Source: Candidatus Nanoarchaeia archaeon
Lineage (GTDB): Archaea; Nanobdellota; Nanobdellia; Woesearchaeales; SM23-78
Assembly: GCA_035289665.1 (NCBI GenBank)
Contig: DATDWO010000043.1
Location: 611-64,610, forward strand
DNA: 64,000 bases
Direction: 5' to 3'
Under the pieces are notes generated by a model, which worked only from the letters and a program-made list of their open reading frames with translations, ran no database searches and had not been told where the DNA came from. Made by a program: the position numbers and the translations under genes. This document shows positions 1,238 to 58,240 of this stretch, in pieces (the first letter of the stretch is position 1; each line of letters opens with the position of its first letter).

Positions 1238-3031
1238 TCAATGCTTGCTTACTTCTTCCAGTAATTCTATGAGCGTCGCGGCACTCCAAGCCTGCGCTAA
1301 GCAGCCAAATGAAGTGCGGGAAGAGGCGCTACTGATCTCCGCGCAATGCCCTAGCCAGCCATCCATTAACATCTCATTCATGCTGGCTTCGATGATCTTA
1401 TAGATTTTTTCTTTATACTTCATTTTGTTTAGCCGTAATAGACTTAAGGCGGCGAGGTTATTGATCCAATACCAACTATCACCTTGGTGATAACTTTGAT
1501 CGTCCTGACCGGTATGCTCAACCTTGAATGCGGGATGAGAGCGATCCAAGGTTGCCAAGCCACCCCAGGGCAACCAGATTCTTTCTAACGCCTTGTCCAA
1601 AGCTCGTTCCCACTCTTCCTGAGAAAGCAATTCAGGGTAAATATAATAGGCCAAGAAAATGTTCGGCCTGACTGTGAAATCAGCCTTTCCATCTACGAAT
1701 CCGTCCGCCAGATGCCCATCAAAGAACTTGTTCTTTATGGCTTGAGCCAGTTGTTTTTCCTGCCAGCCATGTTTTTCGCTATAACTTGAAGTAAGTTCAT
1801 CCAACAACTGCGCTGTCCGATACATACTCAACTGCAATGCCTGGATTTCAATCCGCGCACCTTCCCTCCCTATAGTGTCCATCCACGTCTCTTTTGGATT
1901 GTTGACGATCAAATTATCTTTTTGGTGCTCCTTATGCAAGCGCTGCAAACAAAGCTCTATTTTTTCTTTCAACCGCATTAAATCCGACTTGCTTAAGACA
2001 TTGGAGAGCTGCTTTCTCAATTGCAACAGTCGAATCCAATCGTGAACCCGCTTCCATAGCCAGCCAACCCCGTCTGCGGAACCCAATGGTGAGCCTGAAT
2101 ATACTGGAGAGACATTGGGTAAACGTCCATCTTCTAGAATGTTGTCCATATATGAGAAAATGATTTTCTTAACGAATTCAGCCTTCCCTTGCAAAGCAAA
2201 TGCATGCAGGGAAATCAACGTGTCTCTACTCCAAAACTGGTGGAACCAAGGCAAACCTGCTAAGATGCCCTTACTGTCTTTAACCAAGCTGTGCAAAGCA
2301 TGTACGGCTGGAAGCAACCTGGCTGAAGAATACCGCTGCTCGGTTTCGAGCTCTGCTTGTCTCACTTCTTGATCAAACCCAGTAAAAAACTTTTTGCTTT
2401 GACTTAGAGCTGATTCGATGTCCTGATGCACTGTAAACACTAAACGCAATTTTCCCTGACTGCGGAGTCGCAGCGTCTGATAAATGAAGAAATCAGACTT
2501 GGCCTTTCTTCGACGATCGTATGCATAGTTGCGCTGAGCCCAGTTTTTTACCGGAACAAAACTTTCAACCCCTTCAATGACTATATAATAGGAGCCTTTC
2601 AGTTCTTTTAGCGACTGATCGGAGTATTTTTTATACTCCATGATCAAGGTATTCTCTTGCTTGTAAACTTGGTAGATGCGACCTTGATCGCTGTAATCGT
2701 ACAACTCCCTACAATCCAAGTCCACATTTACAAAGCCTTCATAATTCATTACTTCATATAAGATCGAATTTCCTTTTAAGACAAAACGCTCTTGAGCTTT
2801 ACTGCTTTTTCGCAGAACACTATGGAAATGATTCTCTACGATCTCTACGGGTGAATCTAGATAGATGTTTTCAACTGACTTGAACAAGGTTTCTGTTCCT
2901 AGCTTGAATAACACCAACCCTTCGTAATTCGAACGACACTCTGGTTGGTTCGGCAACGCCAAATATCCCCCTGAAGCGTTGGTCAGCAAAAAGCCTGCCT
3001 TTCCATGCCCCTCCAATTTATGGCCTTTCAC
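1238..3031 (-). CDS. Glycogen debranching enzyme-like (amylo-alpha-1,6-glucosidase, GDE_C family)
   Basis: 597 aa; WFHQFWSRDTLISL motif characteristic of GDE_C amylo-1,6-glucosidase domain. Confidence 0.5.
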   Translation of the reverse strand: MKGHKLEGHGKAGFLLTNASGGYLALPNQPECRSNYEGLVLFKLGTETLFKSVENIYLDSPVEIVENHFHSVLRKSSKAQERFVLKGNSILYEVMNYEGFVNVDLDCRELYDYSDQGRIYQVYKQENTLIMEYKKYSDQSLKELKGSYYIVIEGVESFVPVKNWAQRNYAYDRRRKAKSDFFIYQTLRLRSQGKLRLVFTVHQDIESALSQSKKFFTGFDQEVRQAELETEQRYSSARLLPAVHALHSLVKDSKGILAGLPWFHQFWSRDTLISLHAFALQGKAEFVKKIIFSYMDNILEDGRLPNVSPVYSGSPLGSADGVGWLWKRVHDWIRLLQLRKQLSNVLSKSDLMRLKEKIELCLQRLHKEHQKDNLIVNNPKETWMDTIGREGARIEIQALQLSMYRTAQLLDELTSSYSEKHGWQEKQLAQAIKNKFFDGHLADGFVDGKADFTVRPNIFLAYYIYPELLSQEEWERALDKALERIWLPWGGLATLDRSHPAFKVEHTGQDDQSYHQGDSWYWINNLAALSLLRLNKMKYKEKIYKIIEASMNEMLMDGWLGHCAEISSASSRTSFGCLAQAWSAATLIELLEEVSKH

Positions 3032-4514: not shown

Positions 4515-5495
4515 TTGAAAACAAAGATATCCCTTATTATCCTCATCGGTTTTCTACTCCTTTCTTCTTGCACAACTAAAAAAGAAAGCGATAAACTTGA
4601 CATCACCCAAGCCTTTATCGGCGGAAACGTAGGCTTAAACGTCTTTTTACTTGAGGGACTGCCTCCCCCCGTTGTTTATGATAAAGGTACTTATCCTTTT
4701 GGCGTGGGCGTCACCATTGAGAATGTAGGTGAAGGCGATGTAGGACCTGGGACACCCAATCCCTTTGTTCGCGTACGTTTGGAAGGCATTAACCCTACTG
4801 AATTTGGCACCACGGATGCAGCGGTTGTCCAAGACCTTGCCGTTCCCTTACGAAGCGCCAAACGAAACTTTGACGGCACCATCCTACCTGGAGAAGTTAC
4901 CACGGCTGTATTTGAGCCTTTGAACTACTTACCTGACCTTCGAGGCAATCATGAATTCACGATTCGCGCTGATGTTTGCTATGATTATACTAACTTAGCA
5001 ACTGCTAAGATCTGCATCAAAGATGAAGTCTTAGAAAACATCCAAGATGACAGCATCTGCAGCTTGGTCGGAGAGAAATTCCCCCAAAACAGTGGTGGAC
5101 CGGTACAGATCACTTCATTAGTAGAAAACCCATTGTCTGACAACAAGATTCAAATCAGCTTTGTCCTTGAACACGTTGGCAAAGGAGAATTTTTCGGCCG
5201 AGACACCAATGAAATCTGCGACTTTAGCGTACGAAACTTCAACAAATATTTCATCGATGTCATCATACGACCCTTGGCTGCGCCTGATTTAGCGGTAAGC
5301 TGCACTCGATTTGGTGGAACCAACCAAGGAAGAATCAAACTCTTCCAAGGAGCCCCAGCTACCATCCAATGCGTTGTTCAACGCACAGGGCCTAGCAAGC
5401 GACGCATCTACCAAGAAATCATGGAAATTGAACTTAGATACCGTTATGGACAGTTCATTGAAACCCCGATCCTCATTCAAGATGTTACTAATTAA
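4515..5495 (+). CDS. Secreted lipoprotein, paralog 1 of tandem pair, unknown function
   Basis: Signal peptide with LLSSC lipobox; shares FIGGNxGL..LEGxPPPV..NVGExxVGP..NPFV..RxNFDGTILPGE..DVCYDYTN..KIC.KD motifs with next gene. Confidence 0.55.
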   Translation: MKTKISLIILIGFLLLSSCTTKKESDKLDITQAFIGGNVGLNVFLLEGLPPPVVYDKGTYPFGVGVTIENVGEGDVGPGTPNPFVRVRLEGINPTEFGTTDAAVVQDLAVPLRSAKRNFDGTILPGEVTTAVFEPLNYLPDLRGNHEFTIRADVCYDYTNLATAKICIKDEVLENIQDDSICSLVGEKFPQNSGGPVQITSLVENPLSDNKIQISFVLEHVGKGEFFGRDTNEICDFSVRNFNKYFIDVIIRPLAAPDLAVSCTRFGGTNQGRIKLFQGAPATIQCVVQRTGPSKRRIYQEIMEIELRYRYGQFIETPILIQDVTN

Positions 5496-34505: not shown

Positions 34506-34683
34506 TGCGGGGGAAGGGATTCGAACCCTCGCACCCACTAAGGGACTACCCGTTTGATTGCGCTTGAATGAGACGAGCTTTGCTCGCCAACATTTTTACA
34601 GCGGCTTGAACCGCTGAATGTCGAAAAGCTTCGCTTTCCGACTCCTCAAGGTAGCGCATTTGACCAGGCTCTGCCACCCCCGC
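34506..34683 (-). tRNA. tRNA-Leu(GAG) with ~90-nt intron in anticodon loop
   Basis: 5' GCGGGGGUGGCAGAGCCUGGUCAAAUGCG-CUACC-UUGAGG..., 3' GGUAG + long variable arm + GAGGG-UUCGAAU-CCCUU-CCCCCGC-A; acceptor pairs perfectly. Confidence 0.6.
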
Positions 34684-40865: not shown

Positions 40866-42185
40866 TTAAGGTGTTAACCGTTCTGGATCTCTTGGGAGCA
40901 AGATGGCTTCTCGCACGTTTTCTAGATTGAGCATCTGTTGGGTGATTCGGTCCAATCCGAGACCGACCCCTCCATGAGGTGGACAGCCATATCGGAAAAT
41001 ATCTCGGTAGAAAGCCATCTTTTTGAAATCAATACTCTTCTCTGCACACTGAGCTTCTAGGATGTCGAGGCGATGCTCTCGCTGAGCGCCTGTGCCAATC
41101 TCGACCCCTTTGTAGAGTAAGTCAAACGATTTTGTTACGTTCTTGTTGTTATCTGGTCGCATGTGGTAGAATGGGCGCTTTTTCCAGGGGTAATCCAACA
41201 TAAAGACAAAATCAGAGTTGTACTTTTCCTTTACATGGTCTCCAATCATCTTTTCCCCTTCCGCGTCCAAGTCTTCATCTTCAGGAATGATTTTTCCCTT
41301 TTCCTTCAACCACTTTCGCATCTCAATCAAAGAAAGACGTGGGATCTCCTTAGGAACTTCGATTGTAACACTTAATTCAGCCAGCTCTGTCTTGCATGAA
41401 TCTTTCATTTTGGTTAGCAGGAATTTAACATATTTTTCGATTAAGTCCATCACATCGTGCTCGTCCTTGATGAAACCCATTTCAAAGTCAATGCCGATGA
41501 ACTCAGTTAGATGCCTGGTAGTATGGGACTTTTCTGCTCGAAAGATCGGAGCGATTTCGTACACTTTTTCCAGTCCTGAGACGACAAACATCTGCTTATA
41601 GACTTGTGGAGACTGGGCCAAAGAAGCTGTTTTCCCAAAGTAAGGGATCTTGAATTCTTCCGCGCCGGATTCTACGCCGGAAGCTGTGAGCTTGGGTGTT
41701 TGAATGGCCACAAATTCTTCTTGATCAAAGAACTGGATTGTGGTGCTGTAAATCTTTGAGCGAACCCTAAAAATATTTTTAACTTTGTCCCTGCGTACGT
41801 CTAAAAAGCGATAATCCAAGCGCTTATCCATATGGGTCGTTGTTTCCTCCTGCACCTCAATCGGAAGAGGCGTTTCTGCCAGATTTATCAACTCGACTCG
41901 TGTAGCACCTAATTCAATGGTACCAGTCGCCATCTCTTTTTTTACCTGGTTCTCTGGACGCTTATTCACGACCCCTTCTACTAAAACAATAGACTCTTTT
42001 TTCAAAGACTGAGCTTGTTCGGTTAAGTTCTTATCTAAAAAGACCTGAGTTATCCCATTCCTATCTCTTAATAACATAAAAGAGATCTTGCCTGAGATTC
42101 GTAAGGTGTCCAGCCAGCCGCATAAGGTGACGGTTTTCCCCGCATTGGTCTCTCTCAACTCCCCACACGTATGCGTTCTTAACAT
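40866..42185 (-). CDS. aspS: Aspartyl-tRNA synthetase (class IIb; could be non-discriminating AspRS); start placed at MLRTHTCGELR
   Basis: FRAEKSHTTRHLTEF motif 2 and GGVGLGLDRITQQ motif 3. Confidence 0.8.
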   Translation of the reverse strand: MLRTHTCGELRETNAGKTVTLCGWLDTLRISGKISFMLLRDRNGITQVFLDKNLTEQAQSLKKESIVLVEGVVNKRPENQVKKEMATGTIELGATRVELINLAETPLPIEVQEETTTHMDKRLDYRFLDVRRDKVKNIFRVRSKIYSTTIQFFDQEEFVAIQTPKLTASGVESGAEEFKIPYFGKTASLAQSPQVYKQMFVVSGLEKVYEIAPIFRAEKSHTTRHLTEFIGIDFEMGFIKDEHDVMDLIEKYVKFLLTKMKDSCKTELAELSVTIEVPKEIPRLSLIEMRKWLKEKGKIIPEDEDLDAEGEKMIGDHVKEKYNSDFVFMLDYPWKKRPFYHMRPDNNKNVTKSFDLLYKGVEIGTGAQREHRLDILEAQCAEKSIDFKKMAFYRDIFRYGCPPHGGVGLGLDRITQQMLNLENVREAILLPRDPERLTP

Positions 42186-42274: not shown

Positions 42275-42694
42275 ATGGCTACCGATCAACTCTTAGGCTA
42301 CCTCTTAGGCGGAGCCGTGAGTGGACTGATTTTCGCTTCGGTTATGATCTTTTTCCTGTTCGTTGTAGTAGCTTATCTTTACACGTCTTATGCTTGGATG
42401 ATCCTTGGCCAAAAACTCAAGTACGACAAGCCCTGGCTAGCCTGGATTCCCTTTGCCGGCACCTCGATGGTACTACAAATGGGAGGATTTCACTGGGCAT
42501 GGGTTTTCCTTTACCTTATTCCTATCTTAGGCTGGATTGCCATTGGCGTTCTTTACATTATCTCTAACTGGAGAGTCTTTGAAAAAAGAAAATACCCTGG
42601 ATGGTATAGCTTATCTTTGATCCTACCCAAAGTGGGTGGCATTCTTTACTTGGTCGCACTTGGATTTGTCACGTTTAAAGACAAGAGAAAATAG
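42275..42694 (+). CDS. Small integral membrane protein
   Basis: 139 aa, 4 hydrophobic segments. Confidence 0.45.
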   Translation: MATDQLLGYLLGGAVSGLIFASVMIFFLFVVVAYLYTSYAWMILGQKLKYDKPWLAWIPFAGTSMVLQMGGFHWAWVFLYLIPILGWIAIGVLYIISNWRVFEKRKYPGWYSLSLILPKVGGILYLVALGFVTFKDKRK

Positions 42695-42742
42695 TTTTCT
42701 GACTAAACCTTTAAATACCTAAGGCTGTTTTATCGACGATGT

Positions 42743-42867
42743 GGACCCGTAGCCTAGCCTGGATAGGGCACCAGCCTTCTATCTTCGGATGATAGCTGGT
42801 GATCGTGGGTTCGAACACGGTCCTTTGCGAATCAAACGCTGATCGTTCGAAAGTCCCACCGGGTCCG
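42743..42867 (+). tRNA. tRNA-Arg(UCU) with two introns: 12 nt at 37/38 and 38 nt in the T-loop (59/60)
   Basis: GGACCCG-UA-GCCU..GGGC-A-CCAGC-CUUCUA[12 nt]A-GCUGG-UGAUC-GUGGG-UUCGAA[38 nt]U-CCCAC-CGGGUCC-G; duplicated UUCGAA at intron borders. Confidence 0.6.
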
Positions 42868-42883
42868 CTCTTTTCTTTATACT

Positions 42884-42920
42884 CAGCGACAGAAAGAATT
42901 GGGCAAATAATCTGTCGCTG
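42884..42920 (+). other. Perfect 10-bp stem hairpin (CAGCGACAGA...TCTGTCGCTG) between the two tRNAs
   Basis: Read directly. Confidence 0.5.
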
Positions 42921-43005
42921 GTATATCGCGGAGAAAGCATATACAAAATAAGTGTCCCTCCGCCATAGAAACCCATAAAAAGAGGACTTCGTTTCATCGA
43001 CTTAA

Positions 43006-43077
43006 GCGCTGGTCGCCAAGCGGTAAGGCACGAGGCTGCAACCCTCCCATTCCCCGGTTCAAATCCGGGCCAGCGCT
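43006..43077 (+). tRNA. tRNA-Cys(GCA), intron-less, U73 discriminator
   Basis: GCGCUGG...CUGCAAC anticodon loop...CCCGG-UUCAAAU-CCGGG-CCAGCGC-U. Confidence 0.75.
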
Positions 43078-43105
43078 TAATCTTCCAAACCTTTTTAACC
43101 CTCTC

Positions 43106-43897
43106 TTGGTTTCGTTTTTCATGGCCAAAAAAATCCTTCTCAAACTCCCCCGAACCACGTACGTGGCGGAAGTAAACCGAGAAATTACGCTCTCTGACTT
43201 TGAAAAACACCTAGTGGATGTTGACAAAGACTTTCACTCTAAATATGGCATTATCCCTAAAAAAGAGCTTGCCAAGAAACCCGGCGCTGTGTTGAGAGCA
43301 GGTAAGGAGGAATTCCATTTACTGGACACCTCTTTTTTGGACCTATATAAGAATCTTAAGCGCAGCGCCCAAATCATTGGGTTGAAAGACATCGGAATTA
43401 TCATCGGACGCACCGGCATTCACCGCGAAAGCATTGTGATGGACGCTGGAACAGGAAGCGGAGCCTTTGCCTGCTTTGTAGCTGCGATTGCCAAACAAGT
43501 GGTTTCTTATGATATCGATTCAGAGCGCACATCACTCGGTCAGAAAAATGCATGCGACTTAGGATTGGTAAATGTCGAATTCAAAAAAGGAGATGTGTAC
43601 AAAACAGAAACGGTTAAAGAAAAAGACATTGATGTATTCTTACTTGATGTGCCGGAACCTTCTAAAGCGTTGAAAACAGCGGAAAAAATACTGAATGTTG
43701 GAGGGTACCTTGTTGCTTACACCCCCCAAATTCACCAAGCCCAAAAAGTCGTAATTTCTTTGCCTAAGAATATGTTGCATGAATGCACTATTGAAGTCAT
43801 GGAACGCGAATGGCTCGTGGATGAAATGAGGCTTAGACCGAATTCTGGAGATATGCTGCATACAGCGTTCTTGACGTTTGTGAGGAAACTTTCCTAA
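43106..43897 (+). CDS. tRNA (adenine-N1)-methyltransferase TrmI/Gcd14-like SAM-dependent methyltransferase
   Basis: VMDAGTGSGAF SAM-binding motif and N-terminal TrmI-like beta domain. Confidence 0.65.
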   Translation: MVSFFMAKKILLKLPRTTYVAEVNREITLSDFEKHLVDVDKDFHSKYGIIPKKELAKKPGAVLRAGKEEFHLLDTSFLDLYKNLKRSAQIIGLKDIGIIIGRTGIHRESIVMDAGTGSGAFACFVAAIAKQVVSYDIDSERTSLGQKNACDLGLVNVEFKKGDVYKTETVKEKDIDVFLLDVPEPSKALKTAEKILNVGGYLVAYTPQIHQAQKVVISLPKNMLHECTIEVMEREWLVDEMRLRPNSGDMLHTAFLTFVRKLS

Positions 43898-45145: not shown

Positions 45146-45742
45146 ATGGCTTCCGTCGCCCGTCCCAAACAGCAGATCAAGAAACAAGTTAGAGTTCTAG
45201 GAATAGACGATGCGCCGTTTGATAAATTTAACCCTCTACAACGACAAGTGTTGGTGATTGGGACTGTGTATAGAGGAGGGGATTATATGGATGGTGTCCT
45301 TTCTACTTATGTGGAAAAAGATGGGATTGATGCGACCATGAAGATTGTGGAGATGGTGAATGCTTGCAAGTTCAAATCCCAGCTGCAAGCGATTTTTCTG
45401 AATGGAATTTCTGTTGCCGGTTTTAATGTCATCAACCTCCCTAAGTTGCATGAGCTAACGTCTATACCTGTCATTGCCGTTGTCCGCGATTACCCTAATT
45501 TTGAAGAATTCTATGGTGCCATGGAAAAATTACAGATGACTGAAAAAATGGCTTGGGTGAAAAAGCTGCCTAAACCGGTCAAAGCAGAAAAGGTCTATAT
45601 TCAGCCTGTTGGCATTTCGTTGCCCAAAGCGACCGAGCTGCTCAAGATCTGCACTTCCCACGCTGAAGTGCCTGAGTGCCTGCGCATTGCCCACATCATT
45701 GCCTCCGGACTGGTTGATGGAGAGAGCCGAGGAAGGGCGTAG
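45146..45742 (+). CDS. UPF0215/DUF99 family protein
   Basis: VRVLGIDDAPF N-terminal signature of archaeal DUF99 family. Confidence 0.55.
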   Translation: MASVARPKQQIKKQVRVLGIDDAPFDKFNPLQRQVLVIGTVYRGGDYMDGVLSTYVEKDGIDATMKIVEMVNACKFKSQLQAIFLNGISVAGFNVINLPKLHELTSIPVIAVVRDYPNFEEFYGAMEKLQMTEKMAWVKKLPKPVKAEKVYIQPVGISLPKATELLKICTSHAEVPECLRIAHIIASGLVDGESRGRA

Positions 45743-57102: not shown

Positions 57103-57219
57103 ATTACCACTTATTCTACTAAGTAGTAAAGGTGGTATTTAAAGATTGCGGTAATACAGTGTTTACCTTAGAATATTCTCGGCAGCTTTTTAAATTATTA
57201 GCGCTTATCCAAGCTTGTA

Positions 57220-57673
57220 GGACCGCCCTTAGCTGTCGGTGAATGTAGCTTTACACCTTAACTGGTTGAAGATGCCTTTGCTGAGGAAAGTCCGCCCACA
57301 CCTCGCAAGAGGAAGCAGTTCCTCATGGAAATGAGATCCTGAAAAGGATGGCAACCACTCCGAAACGAGACCCCCAACGTGCAGGATGAAAGTCATGAAG
57401 TTCCAGGCGACTGGAATAAGTTAATTGGCTGACGTTGCGTTGCCCACAGAAGCTTTGGCTTCTGGGGCGCTAGAAAGCTTAGCTTTCTATGCGGAATGGA
57501 TGAAACGGTGAGCCCGAACTTGTGCAAGTCTGTTACAGACGCTCAGTAGAATGCTAAGACATCCATCGGTGTTTCTTTTAGAAATGTGCTCAGAAATCAA
57601 TGATTTCTGGCACGCGAGCAAGCAACACTTGCTCTGCGCTTTGGGATGCACAAAAGGCGGCTTATACCGGTCC
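57220..57673 (+). ncRNA. rnpB: RNase P RNA
   Basis: ORF-free GC-rich stretch; GAGGAAAGUCCGCCCACA (CR-I/P4 5' strand) and ACAAAAGGCGGCUUAUACCGGUCC (P4 3' strand/P1 closing) with P1 GGACCG...CGGUCC pairing. Confidence 0.7.
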
Positions 57674-58240
57674 TACACTTTTTAAACTTAAAACGATCTG
57701 ATCTAAATTGATTTCTGGAGTGTGACGTCCAAAATTCCTTTTTACACGCTCAGATACAGAAAGCGACCTTCTTTTTCCTGTTTCTCCCCCTAATAATCGG
57801 GTCAGTTTTTCACTACGCCTAAGCTGAGGACTTGCCTTTACCACAAAAATCGCGATTGAAGGAGCGAATTCACAAAATTGTTGGTGAACCAAATCGATCC
57901 ATAACCCTCGTTCACTGTCGAAGTTCCAGCTATGTCGTGTTTTGCCTGGATCATAAAACCCGGCTACTTCTTGAAGAGGCGTTAGCTGAGCTACAATATA
58001 GGAAGCGGCATCACACAAACTATAAGGAAACCCTGGAAGGCCCATCATCTCGTCATATGCGCGTTCCAATCTTCGGTAATAAGGAAGCTCTGCTATGACT
58101 TCATTAGGAAGTAAACCTTGTTGCCATTCAGGAATCATTCTATAGGTTCTTGGCGCAAGTTTTTTAAACGCTACGGTTTTTCTACTTATCATGGCGAAAG
58201 ACAACCGCATTACTCTGCCCAGTTCAGGCGCAGGCATCAC
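57662..58240 (-). CDS. Hypothetical protein, GC-rich
   Basis: 192-aa ORF; no domain recognised; 3' end abuts RNase P RNA. Confidence 0.4.
   Translation of the reverse strand: MMPAPELGRVMRLSFAMISRKTVAFKKLAPRTYRMIPEWQQGLLPNEVIAELPYYRRLERAYDEMMGLPGFPYSLCDAASYIVAQLTPLQEVAGFYDPGKTRHSWNFDSERGLWIDLVHQQFCEFAPSIAIFVVKASPQLRRSEKLTRLLGGETGKRRSLSVSERVKRNFGRHTPEINLDQIVLSLKSVGPV

Follow-up and report, generated by a model that had tools for sequence, protein, structure and literature searches.

A two-intron tRNA-Arg(UCU) gene with a conserved T-loop intron at position 59/60 in a Woesearchaeota (DPANN) archaeon

The tRNA-Arg(UCU) locus and its neighbourhood

The window analyzed here, a 64-kb stretch of archaeal DNA (64,000 nucleotides) with a GC content of about 43%, carries on its forward strand, at positions 42743 to 42867, a tRNA-Arg(UCU) gene that reads as three exons and two insertions of 12 and 38 nt. 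It lies among genes for several proteins and for a second tRNA:

40866-42182, minus strand: aspartyl-tRNA synthetase (AspRS)
42275-42694, plus strand: small DUF5684-like membrane protein
43005-43078, plus strand: tRNA-Cys(GCA), uninterrupted
43121-43897, plus strand: GCD14/TrmI-type tRNA m1A58 methyltransferase, directly downstream of both tRNA genes
45146-45742, plus strand: Endo_dU protein

Antisense to both tRNA genes runs a 143-aa open reading frame (42779-43210, minus strand). It is almost certainly not a gene; if a naive gene caller annotated it, both tRNAs could be masked.

The letters of the tRNA-Arg(UCU) gene, with the two insertions in brackets, are GGACCCG UA GCCU AGCCUGGAUA GGGC A CCAGC CUUCUA[UCUUCGGAUGAU]A GCUGG UGAUC GUGGG UUCGAA[CACGG...UUCGAAAG]U CCCAC CGGGUCC G, and CCA is not encoded at the 3′ end. 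The parts of the gene and its flanks are as follows:

42710-42717, plus strand: TATA-box-like TTTAAATA, 26-33 nt 5′ of the mature 5′ end; putative archaeal promoter, read from the sequence
42743-42781, plus strand: exon 1, tRNA positions 1-37 (acceptor 5′ strand, D arm, anticodon stem 5′ strand, and CUUCUA with the anticodon UCU), from ARAGORN on the spliced form
42782-42793, plus strand: intron 1, 12 nt (UCUUCGGAUGAU), at the canonical site 37/38; called as an intron by ARAGORN once the T-loop insertion is deleted
42794-42815, plus strand: exon 2, tRNA positions 38-59 (A38, anticodon stem 3′ strand, variable loop UGAUC, T stem GUGGG, T-loop UUCGAA)
42816-42853, plus strand: intron 2, 38 nt, at the non-canonical site 59/60 in the T-loop; any tRNA call by ARAGORN needs its removal
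42854-42867, plus strand: exon 3 (U60, T stem 3′ strand CCCAC, acceptor 3′ strand CGGGUCC, discriminator G)
42868-42880, plus strand: T-rich tract CTCTTTTCTTTAT, directly after the discriminator; putative archaeal terminator, likewise read from the letters

Detection by tRNA finders and nature of the insertions

When both insertions (42782-42793 and 42816-42853) were deleted in silico, ARAGORN returned a 75-nt tRNA-Arg(tct) with stems of 7, 4, 5, and 5 bp, and the spliced product bears the conserved core positions U8, G18G19, U33, and A37, as well as U54U55C56G57A58 in a 7-nt T-loop. Deletion of the T-loop insertion alone led ARAGORN to the same tRNA-Arg(tct) with a 12-nt intron in the anticodon loop, and zero calls were obtained, intron search included, for the raw region or after deletion of the 12-nt insertion alone. 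The sequence-only reading of this DNA had proposed that a clean cloverleaf emerges only once both insertions are removed, with the anticodon UCU, the acceptor pairing GGACCCG/CGGGUCC, and a restored T stem; these runs agree with it on each point, and its model proved correct in every coordinate. No single-intron model exists by ARAGORN. Indeed, models of 42743-42867 with a single intron or with none were discarded, as ARAGORN calls neither, and the best alignment to the Rfam tRNA model mispairs the acceptor.

That alignment, obtained on the unspliced region at permissive thresholds, scores 21.4 bits against a cut-off of 29 and takes the wrong 3′ acceptor strand; besides this sub-threshold tRNA, the Rfam search of the region at E ≤ 10 yielded no meaningful match. 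On the raw window, ARAGORN reports only the tRNA-Cys at 43005-43078, and Rfam at gathering thresholds finds the same tRNA-Cys, a 178-nt tRNA at 34506-34683 (minus strand), and an archaeal RNase P RNA. The earlier expectation that standard finders miss the tRNA-Arg gene thus holds for ARAGORN and Rfam. As a whole, the precursor folds with z = -3.9 relative to shuffled sequences.

Two other kinds of insert were considered and rejected. Group I self-splicing introns, which in tRNA genes usually occupy the anticodon loop, have a catalytic core of a few hundred nucleotides, and the inserts measure just 12 and 38 nt. C/D box sRNAs are recognized by a C box (RUGAUGA) and a D box (CUGA) brought together by a terminal kink-turn stem. 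Intron 2 offers a lone CUGA (42839-42842), no C box, and no Rfam C/D family; the sole C/D match in Rfam, sR34 (E = 5.5), is at chance level, outside the gene, and on the opposite strand.

The other structured RNAs of the window have peculiarities of their own. The 178-nt tRNA is a tRNA-Leu(GAG) (34506-34683, minus strand; 38 bits in Rfam) that ARAGORN finds only with intron search; its 92-nt intron sits at the canonical position and ends in UCAA, which pairs with U32-A35 (4/4). The RNase P RNA (57217-57676, plus strand; 90.9 bits) is 460 nt long against a 288-position model, which implies sizeable insertions. The T-loop intron of the tRNA-Arg gene (42826-42837) and the 3′ end of the tRNA-Leu intron have GCG(C)AATCAAAC in common, a 12-nt similarity that could hint at relatedness of the introns or at chance; it was matched by 2.9% of shuffles in a post hoc comparison. 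This similarity is the sole hint of intron transposition within the window, for which we found no clear evidence.

Orthologues, the wider family, and intron turnover

The AspRS of the window has relatives in metagenome-assembled genomes (MAGs) that are 92% (locus L001) and 90% (locus L002) identical, and it shares 66-76% identity with its counterparts in numerous MAGs labelled “Candidatus Woesearchaeota”. These relatives, which NCBI lists as “Nanoarchaeota” and “Woesearchaeota”, place the window in a Woesearchaeota (DPANN) archaeon. In both L001 and L002, a tRNA-Arg gene lies upstream of AspRS, in synteny with the window; it is absent from the AspRS loci L003-L021. Contig L100 is almost the same as L001, and both derive from groundwater samples. 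Exon 1 is identical to those of the two orthologues over 25-35 nt, and the exons of the orthologues differ from those of the window by compensatory double changes at 3:70 (A-U to G-C), 6:67 (C-G to U-A), and 49:65 (G-C to C-G), which argues that the gene is under selection for the cloverleaf. The flanks are conserved as well: the same TTTAAATACC occurs at equal distance upstream of the tRNA-Arg gene in L001, and a comparable T-rich tract follows the genes of both L001 and L002. These flanks may act as promoter and terminator; for TTTAAATA, the putative promoter role is based on general features of archaeal promoters.

Both orthologues carry an identical 45-nt insertion exactly at 59/60, unrelated in sequence to the 38 nt of the window. 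The 5′ introns are more variable:

Window, 42782-42793: 12 nt at 37/38
L002, minus strand, about 2950-2965: 16 nt at 37/38, of different sequence
L001, minus strand, about 5369-5399: 31 nt at 29/30, in the anticodon stem

For its part, the 29/30 intron of L001 forms a central helix of 4 bp without a mismatch. Since the site and sequence of the 5′ intron vary among genomes whose AspRS are 90-92% identical, this intron appears to turn over fast, while the 59/60 intron stays put.

A metagenome scan with a shared D-arm DNA pattern yielded a wider set of 119 loci. Parsing them together with the genome loci and the window gave 61 different Arg tRNA genes, among them 28 for Arg(TCT). Ten of the 28 are interrupted exactly at 59/60, by nine distinct introns of 18-87 nt, and the carriers include both orthologues in synteny and seven homologues from metagenomes; no interruption at this site is seen in the 33 genes that encode other Arg isoacceptors or have unassigned anticodons. 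All ten belong to the subgroup with the anticodon stem CCAGC/GCUGG. At the junctions, the uninterrupted homologues read CUUCUAA and UUCRAAU, and among them are near or exact twins of interrupted genes: the uninterrupted L024 matches the joined exons of L061 without a difference, and L040 is nearly identical to those of L072. Together with the ARAGORN calls on spliced forms, these twins and the nine distinct homologous T-loop introns bear out the proposed intron positions, 37/38 for the 12 nt and 59/60 for the 38 nt. Counted across the family, six genes have an intron at 29/30, ten have one at 37/38, and ten have one at 59/60; the six combinations seen comprise none, one, or a 5′ intron plus the 59/60 intron.

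A pattern written for 59/60 introns was also scanned over 2.1 Mb, both strands counted. Apart from one clear false positive (L032), it brought out tRNA-Cys(GCA) genes with insertions of 17-36 nt at 59/60, confirmed by ARAGORN after in silico splicing, with intron ends GAAAG/U or GGAAG/U:

L053, 8078-8167, minus strand: tRNA-Cys(GCA) with a 59/60 insertion
L072, 11709-11816, minus strand: tRNA-Cys(GCA) with a 59/60 insertion
L121, 2799-2926, minus strand: tRNA-Cys(GCA) with a 59/60 insertion

The tRNA-Arg(UCU) and tRNA-Cys(GCA) genes are often adjacent in contigs of the relatives. Tentatively, and with more doubt than confidence, we suggest that the 59/60 intron is old, vertically inherited, and selectively kept in the tRNA-Arg(UCU) and tRNA-Cys(GCA) genes of Woesearchaeota-like DPANN archaea, with 5′ introns that jump between 29/30 and 37/38 within genus-level distance.

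One metagenomic relative differs in its 3′ context. In L113 (plus strand), the 3′ end of tRNA-Arg(UCU) (TCGAATCCCGCCGGGTCCGTGGTACAAAGGGATT) is repeated about 75 nt downstream, within the first 175 nt or so after the D-arm match. The repeat resembles the att duplication that an element leaves when it integrates into a tRNA gene.

The bulge-helix-bulge motif at the 59/60 intron

For bulge-helix-bulge (BHB) motifs, the cut geometry and the pairing between anticodon and intron are well established. We assumed cleavage after the second nucleotide of each 3-nt bulge and 4 bp between the bulges. At 59/60, the T stem (5 bp) serves as the outer helix, and the remainder of the motif is made up of these elements:

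42810-42813, plus strand: 5′ strand of the central helix, U54 U55 C56 G57, paired with CGAA at 42848-42851 (4/4 pairs)
42814-42816, plus strand: 5′ bulge, A58 A59 / C
42817-42846, plus strand: inner helix h′ of intron 2, ACGGUC (42817-42822) with GAUCGU (42841-42846), 6 bp, from the minimum-energy fold
42848-42854, plus strand: 3′ strand of the central helix (CGAA, 42848-42851) and 3′ bulge A G / U60 (42852-42854), followed by the T stem CCCAC

The central pairs U54-A, U55-A, C56-G, and G57-C are all present in the minimum-energy fold. The sequence-only reading had made its model depend on a BHB-like structure at the junctions, and at 59/60 the motif is indeed the minimum-energy structure of the T arm (z = -2.0), in a relaxed form: two bulges of about 3 nt, a 4-bp helix, and outer and inner helices can all be recognized, and the inner helix is offset by 1 nt, leaving U 42847 able to pair with A58. 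In the minimum-energy fold, this A58-U42847 pair gives a 5-bp helix and a 2-nt 5′ bulge, not the strict 3-4-3 arrangement, and the strict form with its 3-nt bulge costs 1.6 kcal/mol more. An extra pair between A58 and a U that immediately precedes the helix strand is possible in the window, L001, and L061. As predicted by folding, the 59/60 motif of the window is therefore a mildly relaxed BHB.

A58, which makes this additional pair in the window, is also the target of the GCD14/TrmI-type methyltransferase. Recurrent A58-U pairing could tie the order of splicing to m1A58 methylation.

The hexamer UUCGAA stands at both borders of the T-loop intron (42810-42815 and 42847-42852), and the earlier reading took this duplication as support for its model. 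The repeat is real; it is no duplication scar, since TTCGAA is its own reverse complement and the second copy is the helix partner of T-loop positions 54-57. What the relatives conserve is complementarity to 54-57, not TTCGAA identity. Across the nine distinct sequences, 97% of the central-helix cells are paired, and position 57 and its intron partner covary, as G-C in five sequences and A-U in four. In a control in which the partners were slid by 1-3 columns, 32-68% of cells were paired, and none of 500 shuffles matched the observed pairing or covariation score. The strict 3-4-3 hBHBh′ arrangement found in L072, L119, L121, and L123 fixes the register. The 59/60 register is the only one compatible with BHB geometry, placing the insertion between Sprinzl positions 59 and 60, and eight of the nine distinct T-loop introns end in GAAAG/U or GGAAG/U.

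The motif at the 37/38 intron

At the anticodon loop, three of the four central pairs can form (C32-G, U34-A, and C35-G, with a U33×U mismatch), the bulges are UA/U and AU/A, and a loop takes the place of the inner helix, of which there is essentially none. Constrained to this BHB, the fold reaches -4.8 kcal/mol against a minimum of -10.6 kcal/mol, in which a UUCG hairpin competes, a gap of 5.8 kcal/mol. Gaps of 4-6.6 kcal/mol recur in eight of the nine relatives with 37/38 introns, among them several whose 4/4 helices are perfect and whose inner stems are good, so the gap would reflect the nearest-neighbour penalty for bulges and not a defect of the copy in the window. Predicted structure thus lends weak support to the 37/38 junction, and the position rests mainly on homology, because all intron-less relatives read CUUCUAA.

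Alternative explanations

Two alternatives deny that the T-loop insertion is an intron. A decaying tRNA pseudogene would carry the insertions as disabling indels while another gene supplied tRNA-Arg(UCU); failure of the unspliced sequence in ARAGORN and below the Rfam threshold, the weak BHB at 37/38, and coverage of one 64-kb window in a genome that could hold a second, uninterrupted tRNA-Arg(UCU) elsewhere would all fit such decay. This explanation is nonetheless very unlikely in view of the cloverleaf kept by three compensatory double substitutions in the orthologues, the conserved promoter-like and terminator-like flanks, and the inserts of very different sequence and length that fall on exactly the same phosphodiester bond in nine lineages; every 59/60 insert, moreover, pairs with U54-R57, with covariation, which is not expected of random indels. 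The chance is almost negligible that the T-loop insertion is instead the scar of integration or excision of a mobile element, with the TTCGAA copies as target-site or att duplication. The 3′ halves of tRNA genes are common integration sites, two TTCGAA copies are present, and in relative L113 the tRNA-Arg 3′ end occurs twice, as integration of an element would leave it. Yet the insert is just 38 nt long, the repeat is a 6-nt palindrome acting as a complementary strand, and the second copy has become CGGAAG in L001 and L002 and UGAAAG in the genes with A57, so that complementarity is kept and identity is not. Left unspliced, the 38 nt would also wreck the core formed by the T-loop and D-loop.

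A third alternative accepts a real gene and moves its junctions, for instance to 58/59 for the T-loop intron (giving UUCGAGU) or to 38/39 for the anticodon-loop intron. Other 38-nt deletions, enumerated by hand, also leave a 7-nt loop with U54 U55 C56 R57 A58, and the 5′ bulge of the window has only 2 nt in the minimum-energy fold. Such shifts are highly improbable, given that intron-less relatives read UUCGAAU or UUCAAAU and CUUCUAA, that only the 59/60 register brings a 3-nt bulge right up to the T stem and a 4-bp helix next to that bulge, and that homologues with a strict BHB fix the same register, pairing being lost in slid ones. We regard 42743-42867 (plus strand) as very probably a functional tRNA-Arg(UCU) gene of Woesearchaeota (DPANN) with two protein-spliced, BHB-type introns at 37/38 and 59/60.

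Splicing enzymes and a proposed pathway

Neither the splicing endonuclease EndA nor the ligase RtcB was found with Pfam among the 36 open reading frames of the window. Searches of the 64 kb by tblastn with a provisional M. jannaschii EndA sequence, used as a lead only, and with the Pfam-verified EndA of L072 gave a chance-level match only; this match (1423-1608, plus strand) overlaps a 597-aa open reading frame on the opposite strand and was dismissed. In L072, a 190-aa single-unit EndA (PF02778 and PF01974; 3534-4106, plus strand) is encoded immediately 3′ of a tRNA-Arg(UCU) gene whose 59/60 BHB is strict, and it resembles the alpha4 enzyme of M. jannaschii (1a79) and the alpha subunit of N. 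equitans (3iey_A). A single-unit EndA gene also directly adjoins tRNA-Arg(UCU) in L075 (2860-3384, minus strand) and L083 (7531-8055, minus strand).

With the gene structure, its conservation, the covariation, and the foldability of the motif established, we infer cleavage, ligation, their order, and the type of enzyme in the window organism along the following lines. The tRNA-Arg gene would be transcribed from its own TATA-like promoter. In the precursor, CGAA in the 3′ part of intron 2 would pair with U54-G57 to form the 4-bp helix, flanked by the T stem, the 3-nt bulge AG/U60, the bulged A58/A59/C, and the inner 6-bp hairpin of the intron. An archaeal EndA would cut in both bulges, and a ligase of the RtcB type would join the exons into GUGGG-UUCGAAU-CCCAC. 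The anticodon-loop intron would probably be removed likewise, from a weaker motif that resembles a bulge-helix-loop.

Relation to known systems and significance

Positions 59/60 and 29/30 are among the listed non-canonical tRNA intron sites (PMC4090602), and T-loop introns at 59/60 have been described in Crenarchaeota, Nanoarchaeota, and ARMAN-2 (PMC4090602; PMC3239211). A close parallel is ARMAN-2 (Ca. [quoted passage not shown] Both systems are DPANN, with an intron at 59/60, more than one intron per gene, and BHB motifs that are either strict or relaxed (hBH), and tRNA-Cys(GCA) has a 59/60 intron in relatives of the window too. On the other hand, ARMAN-2 belongs to the Micrarchaeota and not to the Woesearchaeota, its disrupted tRNAs are Cys and Pro and not Arg-UCU, the other intron of the gene studied here occupies 37/38, and the ARMAN-2 EndA is an epsilon2 three-unit enzyme, in contrast to the 190-aa single-unit EndA of relative L072. 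Cleavage has been shown in vitro for ARMAN-2 (PMC3239211) and is predicted for the gene of the window.

[quoted passage not shown] They differ by their (alpha-beta)2 EndA with a crenarchaeal loop, the window being part of a DPANN genome of mesophilic type (43% GC). Hirata/Fujishima et al. (2018; PMC5829648) report disrupted tRNA genes in DPANN lineages with an L3-loop alpha4 EndA, including Ca. Woesearchaeota RBG_13_36_6; the main text describes DPANN, Woesearchaeota among them, as rich in such genes, given only as proportions per genome, and takes the incomplete predicted tRNA sets of these lineages to point to undetected disrupted genes. That study concerns the same phylum and the same general phenomenon of tRNA gene disruption.

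The literature that we searched contained no description of this tRNA-Arg(UCU) gene or of its conserved 59/60 intron. The sequence-only reading had held that T-arm introns, being known from few archaeal lineages, are phylogenetically informative. The intron is there, and its news value is lower than that, as introns at 59/60 were already described (PMC4090602; PMC3239211) and PMC5829648 already notes tRNA gene disruption in DPANN. The gene is a real, conserved, two-intron tRNA-Arg(UCU) of a known type that would not surprise a specialist, and it leaves the current picture of archaeal tRNA splicing unchanged.

Its significance lies in annotation and in comparison. The gene fills an apparent lack of an AGA-decoding tRNA in a DPANN genome annotated by ARAGORN or plain Infernal, and claims that genomes are reduced or have reassigned codons draw on gaps of this kind. 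With one family, three intron sites, intron-less twins, and BHB covariation, it provides a well-supported comparative series for tRNA disruption in DPANN, and the series from strict to relaxed motifs offers a substrate panel for the specificity of the DPANN splicing endonuclease. If a short, single-unit EndA of the alpha4 type is truly the sole one, the T-loop site, the 2-nt bulge with its 5-bp helix, and the bulge-helix-loop substrates would together imply that this enzyme has a broad specificity in vivo.
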